Positions 2,057-15,658 of a DNA stretch of 64,000 bases are shown piece by piece; the stretch's first letter is position 1; each line of letters begins with the position of its first letter. The notes below the pieces were generated by a model, which was not told where the DNA came from, ran no database searches, and was given only the letters and a program-made list of their open reading frames with translations. The stretch lies in NCBI GenBank assembly GCA_043808365.1, contig JAZDEZ010000021.1, positions 64,403-128,402 on the forward strand, in the 5' to 3' direction. Source of the DNA: Patescibacteria group bacterium (lineage in GTDB: Bacteria; Patescibacteriota; Patescibacteriia; UBA10025; JAHIVO01). Both the position numbers and the translations under genes were made by a program.

Positions 2057-3610
2057 ATGACCAATCAAAAATATTTTCTCTACGCCCGCAAGTCCACTGA
2101 TGTAGAGGACAAACAAGTATTGAGTATTGAAGCGCAGATCGTGGAATTGCGCGCCTTTGCTAAAAAAGAAGGTCTAACAATCATTGAGGAATTAATTGAA
2201 AAGAAGTCGGCCAAAGTGCCCGGGCGCAAAATATTTAATGCCATGCTAGATAGAATAGTAAAAGGCGAAGCGCATGGCATTGTCAGCTGGCACCCAGACC
2301 GTCTGGCGCGCAATTCAGTGGATGGCGGGCGAATTATTTATTTGCTGGATACCGGCCAGCTTGCGGCTTTGAAATTTCCACAGTTCTGGTTTGAAAGCAC
2401 TCCGCAAGGCAAGTTCATGCTCAATATCGCCTTTGGGCAGAGTAAGTATTACATTGATTCATTAAGTGAAAACGTGAAACGAGGCTTGCGCCAAAAAGCT
2501 AGACGCGGAGAGTATTCAGGCATCGCTCCGATTGGCTACATTAACGACTTACGCACCAAAACTGTCGTAGTAGATAAAAAACAAGCCGAGATTGTCCAAC
2601 AGGCATTTGAACTGTACGCCCAGGGCAATTCTCGCCTAGAGGACATTTCCAGCTTTTTGGCGCGGCACAATATTACCTCGCGCAATGGTAAGTCACTAAA
2701 ACGAGACAGAATTTCTTTTATCCTTTCCAATCCTTTTTACGTTGGATTGTTTAGTTATGCTAAAGAACTCTATGAGGGCAAGCACCAGCCAGTCATCTCA
2801 AAGAAAATTTTTGACCAAGTGCAGGCAATACTGAAACAGAAAGGCAGACCGCACCACAAAACCAAGAATGAACCCCAACCCTATTGCGGTCTGCTGCGGT
2901 GTGCCACCTGCGGAATGGGCATAACTGGCGAAAACAAAGTGAAGCACCAAAAGAATGGCAACGAGCACCACTATATCTACTACCGGTGTACAAAAAAGAA
3001 CAAAGTAATTAAATGCAATGAGCCACATATCCGGCAGGAAGCAATGGATGAGCAAATCACACCGCTTATACAAAAATTTTCTTTGCGATCAGATTGGGCG
3101 GACAGCTTGTTACATCAACTAGAGCAAGACACTACAAAGTCCGCCCACTCCTCTGTTGCTTTTGTTCAAGAGACGAAAAACATCATTACCGCAATCGAAA
3201 CCAAGCTCCAGCGGCTACTGGATAGCTACCTGGAGCAGGATATTGACCGTGAAGCCTACCTAACGGCTAAGGCAGGACTCTTGAGCGAGAAAAAGACCCT
3301 GACGGAGAAAATAGTCCGTCTTGAACAAAAGCGGACTGGCTGGGTCGAACCGATGCGGAAATGGATACATACGGCAGCTCTGCTGCCGAAAATCGCGCGG
3401 GAGAGCGACCTTAATTCAAAAAAGGTCGCGGCCAAAGAAATCTTTGGCTCGAACCTCGTCCTGTCTTTCGGGAAAGTCCATCCTGTTCTAAATTTTCGCC
3501 CACAAAAACACTGGTTTGCCATATCCAGTGCCAGAGAGAAAATCGGGGAAATTTCACAAAGTTTGGTGATGGTAGCCCCACGGGGAATCGAACCCCGATT
3601 GTTGGCTTGA
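2057..3610 (+). CDS. large serine recombinase (resolvase/invertase N-domain + recombinase domain + zinc ribbon + coiled coil)
   Basis: 'YARKSTDVEDKQVLSIEAQ' catalytic Ser region, 'HPDRLARN', Cys cluster 'CATCG...YYRCTKKNKVIKC', and a C-terminal coiled coil. The ORF only stops inside the antisense of tRNA-Glu, so the last ~13 codons may not be native. Confidence 0.9.
   Translation: MTNQKYFLYARKSTDVEDKQVLSIEAQIVELRAFAKKEGLTIIEELIEKKSAKVPGRKIFNAMLDRIVKGEAHGIVSWHPDRLARNSVDGGRIIYLLDTGQLAALKFPQFWFESTPQGKFMLNIAFGQSKYYIDSLSENVKRGLRQKARRGEYSGIAPIGYINDLRTKTVVVDKKQAEIVQQAFELYAQGNSRLEDISSFLARHNITSRNGKSLKRDRISFILSNPFYVGLFSYAKELYEGKHQPVISKKIFDQVQAILKQKGRPHHKTKNEPQPYCGLLRCATCGMGITGENKVKHQKNGNEHHYIYYRCTKKNKVIKCNEPHIRQEAMDEQITPLIQKFSLRSDWADSLLHQLEQDTTKSAHSSVAFVQETKNIITAIETKLQRLLDSYLEQDIDREAYLTAKAGLLSEKKTLTEKIVRLEQKRTGWVEPMRKWIHTAALLPKIARESDLNSKKVAAKEIFGSNLVLSFGKVHPVLNFRPQKHWFAISSAREKIGEISQSLVMVAPRGIEPRLLA
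3391..3574. repeat. right arm of inverted repeat (3' end of recombinase gene up to the tRNA-Glu CCA end)
   Basis: Reverse complement matches 1870-2010 (see left arm). Confidence 0.8.
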
Positions 3611-3644
3611 AAAGCCAATGTCCTAACCATTAGACGATAGGGCC
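3570..3644 (-). tRNA. tRNA-Glu (anticodon UUC), CCA encoded
   Basis: Hand-folded cloverleaf: GGCCCTA/TC/GTCT-AATGGTTA-GGAC/A/TTGGC-TTTTCAA-GCCAA/CAAT/CGGGG-TTCGATT-CCCCG/TGGGGCT/A/CCA. Length is 75 nt. Confidence 0.9.
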
Positions 3645-3880
3645 GTGAAATTCTTCAGATAACGCTCAATGTGGCCAGATTTTTTAATCTTGAACTCTTT
3701 AACTCTTGCCAGTGAAAGTGTAGGGAACTTCTCTGTATGAATAAGTTTATAAGGTATGAAAGACTTTGTCGAACGAACTTTGCCTTGGTTATGTTTTATA
3801 ATGCGTTCATTGACATCCTCAGAAACTCCAACGTAGTACCTTCTTGCCTTAAAGCTTTTAATGATATAAAGATAAAACAT
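3600..3880 (-). mobile_element. putative GIY-YIG cassette carrying a replacement 5' segment of tRNA-Glu (boundaries approximate)
   Basis: The segment between the intact tRNA T-arm and the decayed duplicate of tRNA positions 1-~45 consists of the GIY-YIG ORF plus the functional tRNA 5' part. Confidence 0.35.
3623..3880 (-). CDS. GIY-YIG nuclease family protein (small, URI-domain type)
   Basis: 85 aa. 'FYLYIIKS...RYYVGVSEDVNERIIKHNQG' matches the GIY...YIG...R...H/N core of the family. The last 22 nt overlap the 5' end of tRNA-Glu. Confidence 0.8.
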   Translation of the reverse strand: MFYLYIIKSFKARRYYVGVSEDVNERIIKHNQGKVRSTKSFIPYKLIHTEKFPTLSLARVKEFKIKKSGHIERYLKNFTALSSNG

Positions 3881-4035
3881 ATATGTTGAAGGCTTGCCCC
3901 GCCGTACGGCGGGGTCCCGCCGAATGGCGGGAAAAAGCCAATGTCCCGCCCGCTTCGCCTGAAGCGAATCTTTGGCGGACGGGCCTAACCATTTCCGCCG
4001 AAGGCGGATCCGCCTTTGGCGGAAGGCATAGGGCC
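3881..4035 (-). pseudogene. decayed duplicate of tRNA-Glu positions 1 to ~45 interrupted by GC hairpins
   Basis: Minus-strand read: GGCCCTATG[hairpins 3994-4023]AATGGTTAGG[hairpin ~3947-3983]ACATTGGCTTTT[hairpins 3897-3932]CAAGCC. The D-stem 'CGTCT' is lost and no T-arm or 3' acceptor is present. It shares the upstream 'GTGA' flank with the intact gene. Confidence 0.7.
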
Positions 4036-4100
4036 GTGATTTGAAAATAGTACGGGTTTTTTACGGGATGGTCAAGAGGCAGCCGACCCTAGCATTATAA

Positions 4101-13716: not shown

Positions 13717-14556
13717 TCAAGGAGCAGAATACGCGCACCACGCTTGCCGTAAGGCAATTGCTTCCGACCACCATGGCGGTTTGGGCTCCTCGGGCATCCA
13801 TTTACCGACGAACTCATAATCCCCATTTTCTTCCTGCTTGAAATAGCAGTGGGCGTAGTAGATGCAGCCGCAGTAACAGTCGCCCCAGCCGATGTCGACC
13901 AAAAAGTTTATTTTCCCCGTTGCTGAATCTATTCCCGGATAGCAGTTGCTGATGCCGCCGATAATGGACGGGGAATAGACGCGCTGCATCACCCCGGTGA
14001 AGATGTCGTACGCTTCGCTTATTTTTTTGGAGTCGAGCCGGCCATGGAAGAAGTGGGTAAGCAGAACGATTCCAAGTCTTGTCCAGTGCTTGACTTGCAG
14101 GCTGTCCAGCCGGTAAAAGGCGTTGAGCGAATCCCAGACCGGGTTGCCGGTTGGCTGTCCGGCCGTCAGCAGAGTATCCGGCAGGCGCAAATTAAATGAG
14201 TCGGAATAAAAATACAGCTCGAATCGGCCGGGCGTGCCTGGGTCAAAAAAACTGATGCGGGTCGGATTAATGACCCAGCCGGCACGACCTTCGTATGTCG
14301 TAACGCACCAGGCAGAATCGTCAGCCGCGTATTGCTCTCGCCAGCGGGCAAGCGCCTGGAAGCATTTTTCATAAGTCGATTCTGCCGCTACCAGGCGGTT
14401 CTCGGCATACCTCGCGATGTTTTCAGCCTCAGCGTCCGGCCATGGTGATTTGTCGATTTGGCAGGCGAGATCGCAGACCGGCGGTTGCGGTCCGACTGGA
14501 TCACTGCAGCCGCAGATGAGTAAAAATCCAAATGTAAACAATACAGCAGGTTTCAT
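13717..14556 (-). CDS. hypothetical lipoprotein (Cys-rich C-terminal part)
   Basis: Start moved to ATG 14556, giving 'MKPAVLFTFGFLLICGCSDP' (signal peptide plus a lipobox-like LICGC). No family recognised. Confidence 0.6.
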   Translation of the reverse strand: MKPAVLFTFGFLLICGCSDPVGPQPPVCDLACQIDKSPWPDAEAENIARYAENRLVAAESTYEKCFQALARWREQYAADDSAWCVTTYEGRAGWVINPTRISFFDPGTPGRFELYFYSDSFNLRLPDTLLTAGQPTGNPVWDSLNAFYRLDSLQVKHWTRLGIVLLTHFFHGRLDSKKISEAYDIFTGVMQRVYSPSIIGGISNCYPGIDSATGKINFLVDIGWGDCYCGCIYYAHCYFKQEENGDYEFVGKWMPEEPKPPWWSEAIALRQAWCAYSAP

Positions 14557-14653
14557 GTCCCCCCCTTGTGTTAAGGTGCAACAAACCAATTTTTATAGTG
14601 GATTTATTATGGCGCGGTAATTCCACGGTGTCAATGTGGTTTCCCCGATGAGG

Positions 14654-15030
14654 CTTCTTGCCGGAGAAAATGTAGTTTTTATGTCGGAATGCGGTTCAGT
14701 CTAGAAGTGTTTTGATTCTGCTAGCTTGCGCAGCCCCGCTAGTCAGCGGGACTTCCAGCCGGAATCGGGAGTAGTTAATTTTCGGAGTGATTTTCAGATG
14801 AGCAAAGTTTTGATTCTGCTGGCTTGGGCAGCCCCGCCATCCGGCGGGACTTCCAGCCGGAGTCCAAGGTGATTTGCTCACAGAATGTTTTTCAACTGAG
14901 TAGTGTCTTTATCCTACTAGCTTGGGCAGCCCCGCCATCCGGCGGGACTTCTTGCCGGAGAAAATGTAATTTTTATGTCGGAATGCGGTTCAGTCTAGAA
15001 GTGTTTTGATTCTGCTAGCTTGCGCAGCAA
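14654..15030. repeat. tandem array, 98-bp period (about 4 units), starting inside the 3' end of the 14990..15658 gene
   Basis: Minus-strand TGA stops (written tca on the + strand) occur at 14696, 14794, 14892 and 14990, exactly 98 nt apart. Each is followed on the + strand by 12 conserved codons and, in the three orphan units, by a CCCGCC-ATCC-GGCGGG-type hairpin. 14654-14735 repeats 14948-15029 with 1 mismatch. Confidence 0.85.
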
Positions 15031-15658
15031 ACGCGGCCCAGTAGTTCTTGTCGCGCTTAGCCTGCAGTTCGTCTGCCATTTCTTCCCAATCATGGGCTGA
15101 TATCCGGACTTGCTTGAATTTGGCCGGATCGATGATTTTCAGGTAGGAGGCGTGCTTGGTGAACTTGCCGCGGATGTCCTGCTGGCGGAATTCTTCCAGC
15201 TTGCCGATCATGCCGTCCCAAGCTTTCTGCTCAAAGGATAATCGGCTGAATTTGGCCGGGTCAATCAGCTTCATGTGATGCGCGTGCGAAGCAAACATGA
15301 TCCAGTTGTTCTGAGTGATGCATTTTTTTAATATTTCAATCATGCCGCGCCAGTGGCGTTCATTGACTTCAATATCTTTTGAATTGGCCGGATCGATCAG
15401 CTTCATGCGCGCCAGGCGCGAAGCAAAGGCGTCCCAATTGTCCTGGCGCCGATAATTTTCCAGCTCGCGCAGCATGCCGACCCAGTCGTTCGGCGAGATG
15501 AAGATGCCTGTGAATTTGGCCGGGTCGATGACTGCCATGCGGGACGCGTGCCAGGTATAGTCGCGCCAAAACTTGCCGCGGCTGTAATTGGCCAGCTCGG
15601 CGACCATGTTCTGCCAGTCGGCCGCAGAAACCTCCATGTTTGGACCGATGAGGGTCAT
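14990..15658 (-). CDS. hypothetical repeat protein (four to five ~45-aa 'W..FA..A..MKLIDPAKF' repeats)
   Basis: Internal periodicity is visible in the translation: 'HASRMAVIDPAKF', 'ASRLARMKLIDPANS', 'ASHAHHMKLIDPAKF', 'KHASYLKIIDPAKF', 'AAQASRIKTLLD*'. Confidence 0.65.
   Translation of the reverse strand: MTLIGPNMEVSAADWQNMVAELANYSRGKFWRDYTWHASRMAVIDPAKFTGIFISPNDWVGMLRELENYRRQDNWDAFASRLARMKLIDPANSKDIEVNERHWRGMIEILKKCITQNNWIMFASHAHHMKLIDPAKFSRLSFEQKAWDGMIGKLEEFRQQDIRGKFTKHASYLKIIDPAKFKQVRISAHDWEEMADELQAKRDKNYWAAFAAQASRIKTLLD

Follow-up and report, generated by a model that had tools for sequence, protein, structure and literature searches.

Hairpin-separated copies of a gene end stacked in tandem behind a helical-repeat protein gene of Patescibacteria

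Known systems with displaced or stacked gene ends

Genes whose original 3' end lies displaced behind a replacement have been described before, the e14/icd case reportedly by Hill et al. in 1989. In Escherichia coli, mobile DNA in the 3' end of icd (prophage e14, and also phage 21) supplies a replacement end, while the original end, icdC, is kept downstream, untranslated and with mostly synonymous differences, and recombination gives an intact chimeric gene (PMC13626634). The locus described here resembles e14/icd in that the differences between an orphan 3' end and the live end are mainly silent. It differs in scale and distribution: there a 15-kb prophage with an integrase is accompanied by one orphan of about 50 codons, whereas here about 60 nt lie between copies, the orphans are of 12 codons and number up to three, recombinases are absent within 8 kb, and the structure recurs across a family of uncultured bacteria. 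A profile search for a distant copy of the gene end beyond the neighboring region of variable gene content found none at any locus.

Displaced 3' coding ends also pile up in tandem behind the main gene at rhs and cdiA loci, where a short homologous stretch permits recombination. Those orphans carry different toxins with their immunity genes and are kept for diversity, whereas the copies here encode the same 11 residues and hold no gene. As in an integron, units end in a hairpin-forming site that the next unit follows directly, they appear to enter on a fixed side and their number varies; unlike an integron, the locus has no intI, attI or attC, its stem-loop spans 20 nt as against 57-141 nt, and its units are gene-less and all contain the same coding segment, while integron attC sites have paired core sites and extrahelical bases. 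The diversity-generating retroelement of BPP-1 has an orphan 3'-end copy downstream and a GC-rich stem of 8 bp with a 4-nt loop by the gene end, and the array shares with it both the downstream copy and the 8-bp/4-nt stem-loop. In contrast to VR/TR differences, those between the copies here are synonymous rather than amino-acid-changing and are not confined to the adenines of one copy: of the seven that separate copies 1 and 2, two are free of adenine (GCG/GCC, AGC/AGT), three have adenine in copy 1 and two have it in copy 2. Pfam scans of ORFs of at least 180 aa between 7.5 and 24 kb of the window found no reverse transcriptase. Unlike a CRISPR, the array has as its conserved parts the hairpin and a coding segment that varies at third bases, and there are no nearby cas genes. 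Neisserial intergenic mosaic elements, with units of about 50-150 nt split by dRS3 inverted repeats, and 'minimal mobile elements' lie behind genes where strains differ in content, and presumably evolve through recombination with DNA from outside. They share with our array the short units and small inverted repeats at a site of variable gene content; unlike ours, their units are not copies of the adjacent coding end, and they occupy many loci. We know of no earlier description of stacked, hairpin-separated copies of a gene end, and the literature searched contained nothing comparable.

The host gene and its array in the window

The window is the whole 64-kb stretch of DNA that we analyzed. The host gene of the array (14990..15658, minus strand), defined by its ORF and translation, encodes 222 aa with the C-terminus AAQASRIKTLLD followed by TGA. 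The protein is made of five 44-aa helical repeats, which appear in the DNA as internal 132-nt repeats, and matches neither Pfam nor NCBIfam. Its AlphaFold2 model is all-helical with a pLDDT of 94, and a fold search of the PDB with this model returned nothing at E<=0.001, the weak best matches being TPR-type helical repeats. The final 12 codons are the best-conserved stretch of the protein. Upstream neighbors encode a SpoIID-like protein, a Wzx-like flippase and a glycosyltransferase, and queA lies downstream. Orthologues of the gene occur in 24 lineages with conserved synteny. Searching with the neighboring SpoIID-like protein brought in further relatives, whereas queries with the 222-aa protein itself or its alignment returned P0001 alone. 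Exact look-ups of RuvB, QueA and the array-gene product returned no close strains of the window genome. A viral origin was considered and rejected, the tail pattern of the gene having 0 matches in 2.9 million viral contigs. The array forms the border of a region whose gene content is different in almost every lineage and whose fixed flanks are the SpoIID-like gene and the array gene on one side and queA on the other.

The array occupies 14654-15028 on the minus strand and comprises 3.8 units of 98 nt. Tandem Repeats Finder places it at 14660-15028 with a period of 98 and 3.8 copies, and a separate repeat search gave four copies with spacings of 98, 98 and 98. Each unit is composed of 12 codons (AAQASRIKTLL plus a last residue), a TGA stop, a 41-nt spacer and an 8-bp stem-loop. 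The gene-end copies with their stops lie on the minus strand at 14990-15028, 14892-14930, 14794-14832 and 14696-14734, end in D, S, I and D respectively and all use TGA, just as an earlier sequence-only reading of this DNA had described. The back-translated 11-residue pattern has four matches in the 64 kb, which are these copies, against 0.00 expected by chance.

Unit 1 (14931..15028, minus strand) contains the live end E1 (14993-15028), its stop (14990-14992), the 41-nt spacer and hairpin 1, which reaches 14929 (14929..14948, minus strand; GTCCCGCC-GGAT-GGCGGGGC). The final two stem bases of this hairpin are also the opening two bases of the next copy. That copy, the orphan E2 (AAQASRIKTLLS, 14895-14930), begins unit 2 (14833..14930, minus strand) and is followed by its stop (14892-14894), a spacer and hairpin 2 (14831..14850, minus strand), which has the same sequence as hairpin 1. 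Unit 3 (14735..14832, minus strand) consists of the orphan E3 (AAQASRIKTLLI, 14797-14832), its stop (14794-14796), a spacer and hairpin 3 (14733..14752, minus strand; GTCCCGCT-GACT-AGCGGGGC), in which the loop-closing pair C:G of hairpins 1 and 2 has become T:A, with both sides altered. Each orphan copy is preceded by a hairpin, as had been noticed from the letters. The partial unit 4 (14654..14734, minus strand) holds the orphan E4 (14699-14734), its stop (14696-14698) and a spacer with no intact hairpin after it. It is nearly the same as unit 1, with 1 mismatch over the 81 nt of gene end and spacer, and the identity ends exactly where the hairpin would start. A possible decayed fourth hairpin (14638..14653, minus strand; CCTCATCGGGGAAACC), an uncertain assignment read from the sequence, has CTCATCGG in common with the second hairpin of the related locus L004. 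The distal boundary of the array is a promoter-like site, TTGACA-17-CATAAT (14606..14634, minus strand), that belongs to the next gene, a lipoprotein-like ORF with its ATG at 14556. The window units have in common a motif TCCGGCWRGAAG before the hairpin, and each is exactly 98 nt long.

Among the copies, residue-level change is confined to the last position, as had been claimed. Copy 2 differs from copy 1 at 7 positions, throughout third positions and the same ones that the sequence-only reading had listed; for copy 3 that reading gave five third-position differences, which are there together with a sixth, a first-position change in a Leu codon (CTT>TTG) that is also synonymous. Every pairwise difference among the three distinct copies is synonymous, and the probability that randomly placed substitutions would all be synonymous is 5e-5 for copies 1 and 2, 1.2e-4 for copies 1 and 3 and below 1e-5 for copies 2 and 3 in a permutation test. 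Identity among units 1-3 is 95-100% at first and second codon positions and 80-100% in the hairpins, and falls to 36-55% at third codon positions and 40-50% in the spacers. Since neutral drift of untranslated copies is expected to give about 60% non-synonymous changes and only synonymous ones are seen, the divergence happened under translation. The mark of protein-level selection that had been proposed is thus significant in the window, and the pattern is repeated in nine other lineages; such a period-3 substitution signature is by itself no proof of present-day translation. The last residue of E3, Ile, is absent from all live ends examined, which end in D, N, S, T or E.

Recurrence, hairpin conservation and decay of the orphans

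The same layout, with 1-3 orphans each, is found behind the same gene in 10 of the 24 related Patescibacteria lineages, and behind no other gene in the 253 kb examined. A profile of the 39-nt end, run on the window and on about 250 kb of related loci, detected copies only directly behind the array gene, and a scan of all ORFs of at least 60 aa in the 253 kb for a downstream copy of their own tail returned the array gene only, bar one pair. This sole other pair, in L005 and L008, is on the opposite strand. The suggestion that the copies are ends of paralogous repeat-protein genes found no support: tblastn found no paralogue of the 222-aa protein in the window, and none was found in the related loci either. 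The most plausible source of the copies is the end of the array gene itself in other alleles. Arrays occur patchily over the gene tree: over half of the lineages lack one, and sister lineages carry unequal copy numbers (three orphans in the window against none in L002 and L003, two in L004 against none in L026, one in L007 against none in L014). A third, decayed copy in L001 was suspected by eye, was undetected by the profile and was left out of the counts.

The units are alike in form across lineages. Unit size is 96-100 nt in 9 of 14 units, with all three classes of length modulo 3 represented; the distance from stop to hairpin is 39-43 nt in 12/14, although the spacers are unalignable; and the junction register is the same in 14/14, the stem ending in ..GGGRC followed by N GCN CAR. 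Some features are shared within a genome. TGA closes all four window units, as against about 21% of long window ORFs and 1 of 23 other live ends; all three units of L005 end in AAC TAA; and the Ser and Ile codons are AGT..ATA in both copies of L009 as against AGC..ATC in both copies of L031. Equivalent orphans in sister lineages differ synonymously only, at 6/6 differences between L001.2 and L007.2 and 5/5 between L009.2 and L031.2.

The hairpin is a 20-nt stem-loop with an 8-bp stem and a 4-nt loop, and it is a structure under selection. In a test for compensatory changes 95.5% of cells were paired and six cells had both sides changed; the covariation score was matched by 1 of 500 shuffles, and slid controls were 40-60% paired. 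The stem TCCCG..CGGG is invariant across lineages and the loops vary, and in 8 of 11 hairpins a U.G pair forms on the sense strand only. The stem-loop may serve in RNA as a 3'-end or terminator-like element, or may instead be a hot spot of recombination. A consensus scan called no intrinsic terminator in the array; the sense stem is followed by (U/C/G)GCNCAR without a U tract, and the antisense side by CUUUUU in L020 and L031 and by CUUCUU/CUUCCA in the window. Rfam 15 gave no family at its gathering score, the best matches being far lower (e.g. 19.7 against 75 bits). An RNA hairpin inside the 36 nt of the gene end, pairing the Ser-Arg with the Leu-Leu codons, was seen in single folds and was rejected as inconsistent between copies. 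Elsewhere in the window, a dead tRNA-Glu fragment that adjoins a GIY-YIG gene and a serine recombinase has the same type of hairpin inserted five times, from which we take it that hairpins of this kind move in this genome.

The orphan copies are not translatable at present. In 9 of 13 orphans the stretch from the copy back to the closest in-frame stop contains no ATG, GTG or TTG; that stop lies 2-6 codons upstream of the orphan in L027, L001 and L032, and the frames of E2 and E3 are open for 14 and 15 codons upstream, respectively, with no start codon. The sequence-only reading was right that simple readthrough cannot join the copies, and this holds for frameshifting too, given stops in the relevant frames. 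For bypass as for frameshifting, the target frames have stops downstream of the live stop and offer no open path. We considered hopping because hairpin 1 has in its loop the Asp codon GAT, which shares the frame of copy 2 and corresponds to the take-off codon GAC. Of the last sense codons GAC, AGT and ATC, only that of unit 1 has such a match in the next hairpin (GAC/GAT), and this explanation was dropped because units 2 and 3 and the other genomes show no such match. Orphans are also damaged more often than live ends, a replaced residue, truncation or lost stop being present in 7 of 14 as against 2 of 24 (Fisher P=0.006), and in L004 the distal orphan is the more damaged one.

Origin of the stacked ends

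Comparison of related loci places recombination at the copies. Structural variation, proposed as a check in the sequence-only reading, was found between sister genomes: L007 equals L014 plus exactly one 100-nt unit, and the flank past the distal copy of L007 matches the flank past the sole copy of L014 (z=8.9). Over the 120 nt that precede the gene end, L001 shares about 93% identity with L007; the first spacers of the two are unalignable, and the match is good again over the hairpin and the first 27 nt of the orphan (26 of these 27 nt). The likeness stops inside the orphan, where gene order also changes. In L007, L020 and L027 the distal orphan adjoins the start of the downstream gene (GAT TAATG... 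and the like), and in the array-free L006, L015, L023 and L026 the live end adjoins the downstream gene in the same way. Since the distal orphan is placed like an array-free live end, the extra module lies on the gene side of the resident end.

We give a probability of roughly 55% to the explanation that recombination left a stack of displaced former gene ends here, and not a working cassette system; each copy would once have been the live end in some allele, modules having been put repeatedly before the resident end, with the relics decaying. In part of this Patescibacteria family the gene end comes as such a 3'-end module of about 100 nt, in which the 12 codons and their stop are followed by about 41 nt of spacer and a GC-rich stem-loop of 8 bp. 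Recombination with diverged alleles from relatives may insert it between the gene body and the resident end, the left crossover falling in the gene body and the right one in either the hairpin or the conserved 36-nt gene end; alternatively, a local duplication could be followed by ordinary allelic replacement of the first unit. The newcomer would become the live end, and the resident would be shifted downstream behind the hairpin and lose its translation. Repeated rounds would give 1-3 orphans, gene conversion or unequal exchange within the array may also take place (window unit 4 is nearly unit 1), and displaced copies would decay and finally be lost. We propose that the differences are synonymous because each copy diverged while it was the live end in some allele. 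We infer that the donors were other alleles and that insertion was by homologous recombination rather than by a dedicated enzyme; since no window unit could be matched to a donor allele, import is deduced rather than seen directly. The features shared within a genome (TGA, AAC TAA, the 98-nt length, the motif) suggest either that the units arose locally or that their donors belong to a closely related subclade missing from the sample, and the purely synonymous differences between sister orphans need either replacement after the split or some constraint in place. Counting against displaced ends, a passive relic predicts neither an invariant stem nor a fixed distance from stop to hairpin, and recombination between alleles near synonymous saturation should be rare. 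If the ends were displaced by recombination, each array preserves, like a small fossil bed, the past allelic replacements of a single locus, and would allow a direct estimate of the rate of DNA exchange across species-level divergence in Patescibacteria. Arrays of this kind can also be a trap for gene callers and repeat finders.

The regularity of the units would also suit a miniature non-autonomous integrative element, site-specific at the codon 210/211 junction, with its recombinase encoded elsewhere; we hold this to be unlikely. The hairpin would be recognized as folded single-stranded DNA, new units would enter at a gene-proximal site as at an integron attI, and a recoded gene end would be carried so that the array gene, which looks essential, survives, as with e14 in icd. 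That the arrays are chronological records of successive invasions, laid out like an integron or CRISPR, is a similarly doubtful extension, and if such an element exists it is the smallest known to repair its own target gene. The constant junction register in all 14 cases, the closing of each unit at the 3' base of the hairpin with the next starting immediately, the narrow size (96-100 nt in 9/14), the addition of units on the gene-proximal side and a stem conserved where silent sites are saturated and loops vary are all in its favor, as are the five insertions in the dead tRNA-Glu fragment. However, recombinase, transposase and reverse transcriptase are all absent within 8 kb of the array, the nearest recombinase being a large serine recombinase 11 kb away, and we know of no use of hairpins by that family. 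The unit is restricted to one gene in the 253 kb examined, a version with cargo was not found there, and the breakpoints inside copies, like the identity of units 1 and 4 that ends at the 5' base of the hairpin, resemble homologous exchange rather than cutting at a fixed site. Tandem duplication in place, with the orphans under protein-level constraint where they sit, is more doubtful. The constraint might be indirect, in the manner of silent pilin cassettes, if a damaged orphan becomes harmful once it recombines with the live end, or direct, the copies being translated or active as RNA by an unknown hairpin-linked mechanism. It would account for the lineage-specific features within a genome (four TGA stops in the window, three AAC TAA in L005, the codon choices of L009 and L031), the synonymous differences between sister orphans, the compensatory changes and sense-strand U.G pair (8/11) of the hairpin and the conserved distance from stop to hairpin. 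It meets the absence of a route to translation (in-frame stops, missing starts, three phases, no match of take-off and landing codons) and the decay of orphans by residue replacement, frameshift and truncation. Third positions are near random between copies, so gene conversion must be rare relative to mutation and indirect selection very weak; all copies give the same peptide, and switching brings no gain. Moreover, the spacer and hairpin of L007, L020 and L027 are without counterpart in array-free relatives, in which the start of the next gene lies no more than 9 nt from the stop; a simple local duplication cannot have given rise to them.

Of the replacement cassettes that the sequence-only reading had suggested, the recombination was borne out by breakpoints in the copies, and the function was not, as all copies encode the same peptide and decay; we saw no sign of a system selected for variation. 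Silent cassettes that exchange the last residue or the 3' untranslated region are accordingly very improbable, although the last residue does vary (D, S and I in the window, D, N, S, T and E in live ends) and the copies are in register, so that exchange between them leaves the gene intact. With an identical peptide in all cassettes a swap alters at most the last residue, and this is the same in orphan and live end in L005, L007, L001 and L031; uninterrupted identity between copies reaches 8-14 nt at its longest, which makes them poor substrates for recombination, and more than half of the lineages have no array while existing orphans decay. An assembly artefact, in which strain variants of the gene end were chained by the assembler at the palindrome, is hardly credible. 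In its favor, the DNA comes from a metagenome-assembled genome, and a palindrome can tangle an assembly graph; but the junction of hairpin and copy has about 5 nt in common with the true gene junction, far under any k-mer size. The architecture is present with different sequences in 10 lineages (NCBI, JGI, ENA and Logan assemblies), and independent assemblies carry identical arrays, that of L004 in a JGI/NCBI and a Logan assembly and that of L032 in three assemblies.

Structure of the array and divergence of its copies

The gene heading the array is a minus-strand ORF of 222 aa (14990..15658) whose C-terminus, from the ORF and its translation, is AAQASRIKTLLD, followed by TGA. A minus-strand array of 3.8 copies, repeating every 98 nt exactly, begins at the gene's 12th-last codon. 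In gene orientation, each 98-nt unit consists of the 12 codons of the gene end (E), a TGA stop, a 41-nt spacer and a 20-nt stem-loop, with the motif TCCGGCWRGAAG ahead of the hairpin common to the units, and the final two stem-loop bases are the initial two bases of the following E. The stem-loops are GTCCCGCC-GGAT-GGCGGGGC (twice) and GTCCCGCT-GACT-AGCGGGGC (once). The four copies, counted outward from the gene, encode AAQASRIKTLL followed by D, S, I and D in turn; a back-translated pattern of the 11 constant residues gave four matches in 64 kb, all in the array, against a chance expectation of 0.00. Unit 4 differs from unit 1 by 1 mismatch in 81 nt, with identity ending where the hairpin would begin, and beyond it lie a promoter-like site and then the start of the next gene. 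The site, immediately beyond the array (14606-14634, minus strand), is TTGACA-17-CATAAT (11/12, strong); the lipoprotein-like ORF after it (MKPAVLFTFGFLLICGCS..., 13717-14556, minus strand) is lineage-specific, no counterpart being present at the equivalent position of the related loci.

The differences among window copies 1-3 are 100% synonymous, including a two-step Leu change from CTT to TTG, and number 7 (copies 1 and 2), 6 (1 and 3) and 8 (2 and 3) within 33 nt; the last codon of E is free to vary. When equal numbers of substitutions were placed at random, an all-synonymous outcome had P = 5e-5, 1.2e-4 and below 1e-5, respectively, so the codon pattern exceeds chance. Third codon positions (36-55% identity) and spacers (40-50%) are about equally scrambled, while first and second positions are 95-100% and hairpins 80-100% identical. 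The sequence-only reading had described a 98-bp array with regularly spaced stops and copies of the gene end that differ almost purely by synonymous substitutions; this is confirmed in full.

The gene product has no Pfam or NCBIfam match. Its AlphaFold2 model (pLDDT 94) is all-helical with five repeats, and a PDB fold search with this model gave nothing at E<=0.001, the weak best matches being TPR-type helical repeats. The protein falls in an undescribed family of 44-aa helical repeats (motif W..M..EL..Y.....W..FA..A..MK.IDP) with 286 distant relatives, mostly of 265-300 aa, in a library of 1.84 billion proteins. Its most conserved part is the last 16 residues.

Recurrence and recombination in related lineages

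We gathered 24 lineages of the gene by a GTDB scan, a metagenome scan with a degenerate tail pattern, the contig of the single database homologue and look-ups through the neighboring SpoIID-like gene, whose protein in the window has a 100% identical match in an NCBI 'Patescibacteria group bacterium' MAG. The order SpoIID-like gene, the gene, a variable stretch and queA holds in 24/24. Extra copies of E (orphans) lie directly behind the gene in 10 of the 24: three in the window, two each in the related loci L004 and L005, one each in L001, L007, L020, L027, L031 and L032, and a truncated one in L009. In every array-bearing locus the orphan comes after a stem-loop of one type, and the register between the two is constant. 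The arrays are scattered on the gene tree, copy number differs between sister lineages, and their recovery in independent assemblies shows that they are not artefacts. The live-versus-orphan pairs tested in other genomes differ purely synonymously (8/8 in L001, 10/10 in L007), and equivalent orphans in sister lineages show synonymous differences only. Units within a genome also share traits, namely the TGA stop in 4/4 window units and the ending AAC TAA in 3/3 units of L005. A nucleotide profile of E found no additional copies anywhere in the loci, and a scan of 253 kb for other ORFs with a downstream copy of their own tail yielded none that we accepted. The one other match pair in that scan (RFSATRANFS / RFSETRLNFS, 366 nt apart, in L005 and L008) sits ~1.1 kb upstream of the gene; it is on the opposite strand to the SpoIID-like gene and probably represents the antisense reading of a repeat internal to the SpoIID-like gene.

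Recombination is evident from four observations. L007 matches its close relative L014 except for exactly one extra 100-nt unit, and the flank after its distal copy is the flank after the only copy of L014 (z = 8.9). L001 and L007 share about 93% identity over the last 120 nt ahead of the gene end and have first spacers that do not align; they match well again in the hairpin and the opening 27 nt of the orphan (26/27 of those nt), and similarity then stops inside the orphan, the downstream genes being different. In L007, L020 and L027 the distal orphan directly adjoins the next gene's start (e.g. GAT TAATG) exactly as the live end does in the array-free L006, L015, L023 and L026; therefore, the resident end is the distal one and the extra module lies on the gene side. 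Because spacer and hairpin are wholly absent from these four array-free relatives, simple local duplication was rejected as the source of the module. Finally, the near-identity of window units 1 and 4 shows recent conversion within the array or unequal exchange.

The stretch between the gene and queA differs in gene content in almost every lineage: it holds a membrane protein coupled by TAATG in L006 and L007, a different membrane protein in L023 and L027, DUF2079 in L032, TPM phosphatases in L026 and nothing in L011 and L019. Since the flanks are conserved, gene turnover has a local hot spot here.

The stem-loop and the fate of the orphans

Across 11 hairpins, pairing holds in 95.5% of cells, compared with 40-60% in slid controls. 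Two-sided changes (C:G to U:A) occur in 3/8 pairs, a covariation matched by only 1/500 shuffles, and pair 2 is U.G in 8/11 hairpins, a pair that forms on the sense strand only. The stem core TCCCG..CGGG is invariant while the loops vary (GGAT, GACT, GAAT, ACAT, GTAA, GTAT), and the stop-to-stem distance is 39-43 nt in 12/14 units despite spacers that cannot be aligned between lineages. The stem-loop matches no Rfam family, and a canonical terminator was rejected because the sense strand has no U tract after the stem. Hairpins of this type are rare in the sampled DNA: besides those of the arrays, there is a single one upstream of the L005 gene, and a tRNA-Glu region of the window has others. 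In L001 (1660-1695) a second hairpin sits in the loop of the first; in L009 (reverse strand) a 60-nt hairpin, TCCCGCACCTTTT...AAAAAGGTGCGGGA, cuts the orphan after codon 8; and in L032 (6950-7040) additional GC-rich hairpins follow the orphan, one of them of array type (GTCCCGAT-GAAT-ATCGGGAG) with no recognizable copy after it.

As judged from the reading frames, the orphans cannot be translated by any ordinary route. An in-frame stop closes each frame 2-70 codons upstream (in L027 within the hairpin loop itself), and ATG, GTG or TTG is missing between that stop and the orphan in 9/13. Window copy 2 has a stop in its frame downstream of the live stop, so that no frameshift made ahead of the live stop can reach this copy. 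Units range from 65 to 121 nt and cover all three phases, and matched take-off and landing codons of the kind known from T4 gene 60 bypassing are present for window unit 1 only. Damage is found in 7/14 orphans versus 2/24 live ends (Fisher P = 0.006). It comprises replaced residues (Val or Thr at codon 1; I>F, T>I, R>W and A>V), loss of the last codon, a frameshift of 1 nt and a truncation; of the two L004 orphans the distal one is more heavily damaged, and the final Ile of window copy 3 is found in no live end. For codons 2-11 only, the excess is 5/130 in orphans versus 2/240 in live ends (P = 0.055). Overall, the orphans are protected only weakly, if at all.

Origin of the array

The finding is real, statistically solid and recurrent in related genomes. 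Divergence of untranslated copies in place would be mostly amino-acid-changing; because the copies are synonymous yet decaying, an origin as live ends is the simplest. Each copy would have gathered its differences as the live gene end of some allele and have been orphaned only recently. The recombination events show a route to this: alleles do recombine here, crossing over within E and at the hairpin, and whole modules (12 codons, stop, spacer, hairpin) are gained and lost between the gene and its resident end. The locus also edges a stretch of variable gene content, a setting in which recurrent exchange with foreign DNA is to be expected. We thus favor, at a probability of roughly 55%, the reading of the array as a stack of displaced gene ends, a record of recombination and not a functioning recoding or cassette system.

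This reading does not account for the traits shared by the units of one genome (TGA in four, AAC TAA in three, 98 nt) or for the synonymous-only differences of equivalent orphans in sister lineages; stem sequence and stop-to-stem distance are conserved far beyond the need of a passive relic, and no donor allele was found. These points keep two alternatives alive. A miniature mobile element, a hairpin-ended unit homing into the gene end by an enzyme encoded elsewhere, would suit the exact junction, the gene-proximal addition, the narrow unit size and the insertion-like behavior of the same hairpin type elsewhere in the window, but it is doubtful given its restriction to a single gene, the breakpoints inside copies and the absence of a recombinase within 8 kb of the array. 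Units that arose locally and are held under constraint where they lie are the other live alternative, against which stand the lack of a route to translation, the visible decay, the absence of the module from array-free relatives and near-random third positions, which imply that gene conversion happens too seldom for indirect selection to work. Because all copies encode the same peptide, a switching system under selection is unlikely.

We compared the array with the defining features of diversity-generating retroelements, e14-type attachment-site duplications, integrons, intrinsic terminators, CRISPR arrays and translational bypass, and each was rejected as its identity because the array lacks at least one of the defining features. 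Attachment-site duplication comes closest in workings and the integron array in layout, but the array is a member of neither. To our knowledge, arrays of this sort are undescribed. The orphan tips behind rhs genes are displaced gene ends and the array, on the favored reading, is the same in kind, but with units of ~100 nt and no element genes between them. The same likeness and difference hold for icdC behind prophage e14, also a displaced gene end (PMC13626634).

The window region 2057-4040 holds a second displaced gene fragment. There, the 3' end of tRNA-Glu(UUC) (3570-3644, minus strand) is overlapped by a large serine recombinase ORF (2057..3610, plus strand), and a GIY-YIG ORF (3623..3880, minus strand) ends within the 5' end of the same tRNA. 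Upstream of the GIY-YIG ORF lies a partial second tRNA-Glu copy (~3885-4035, minus strand), the 5' half to the anticodon stem. It looks as though a selfish gene inserted here, replacing part of the tRNA gene while the old part stayed behind. Five GC-rich stem-loops, alike in kind to the array hairpin, interrupt the partial copy at three sites: TCCGCC-N3-GGCGGA twice, one nested, CCCGCC-ATTC-GGCGGG and CCCCGCC-GTAC-GGCGGGG.
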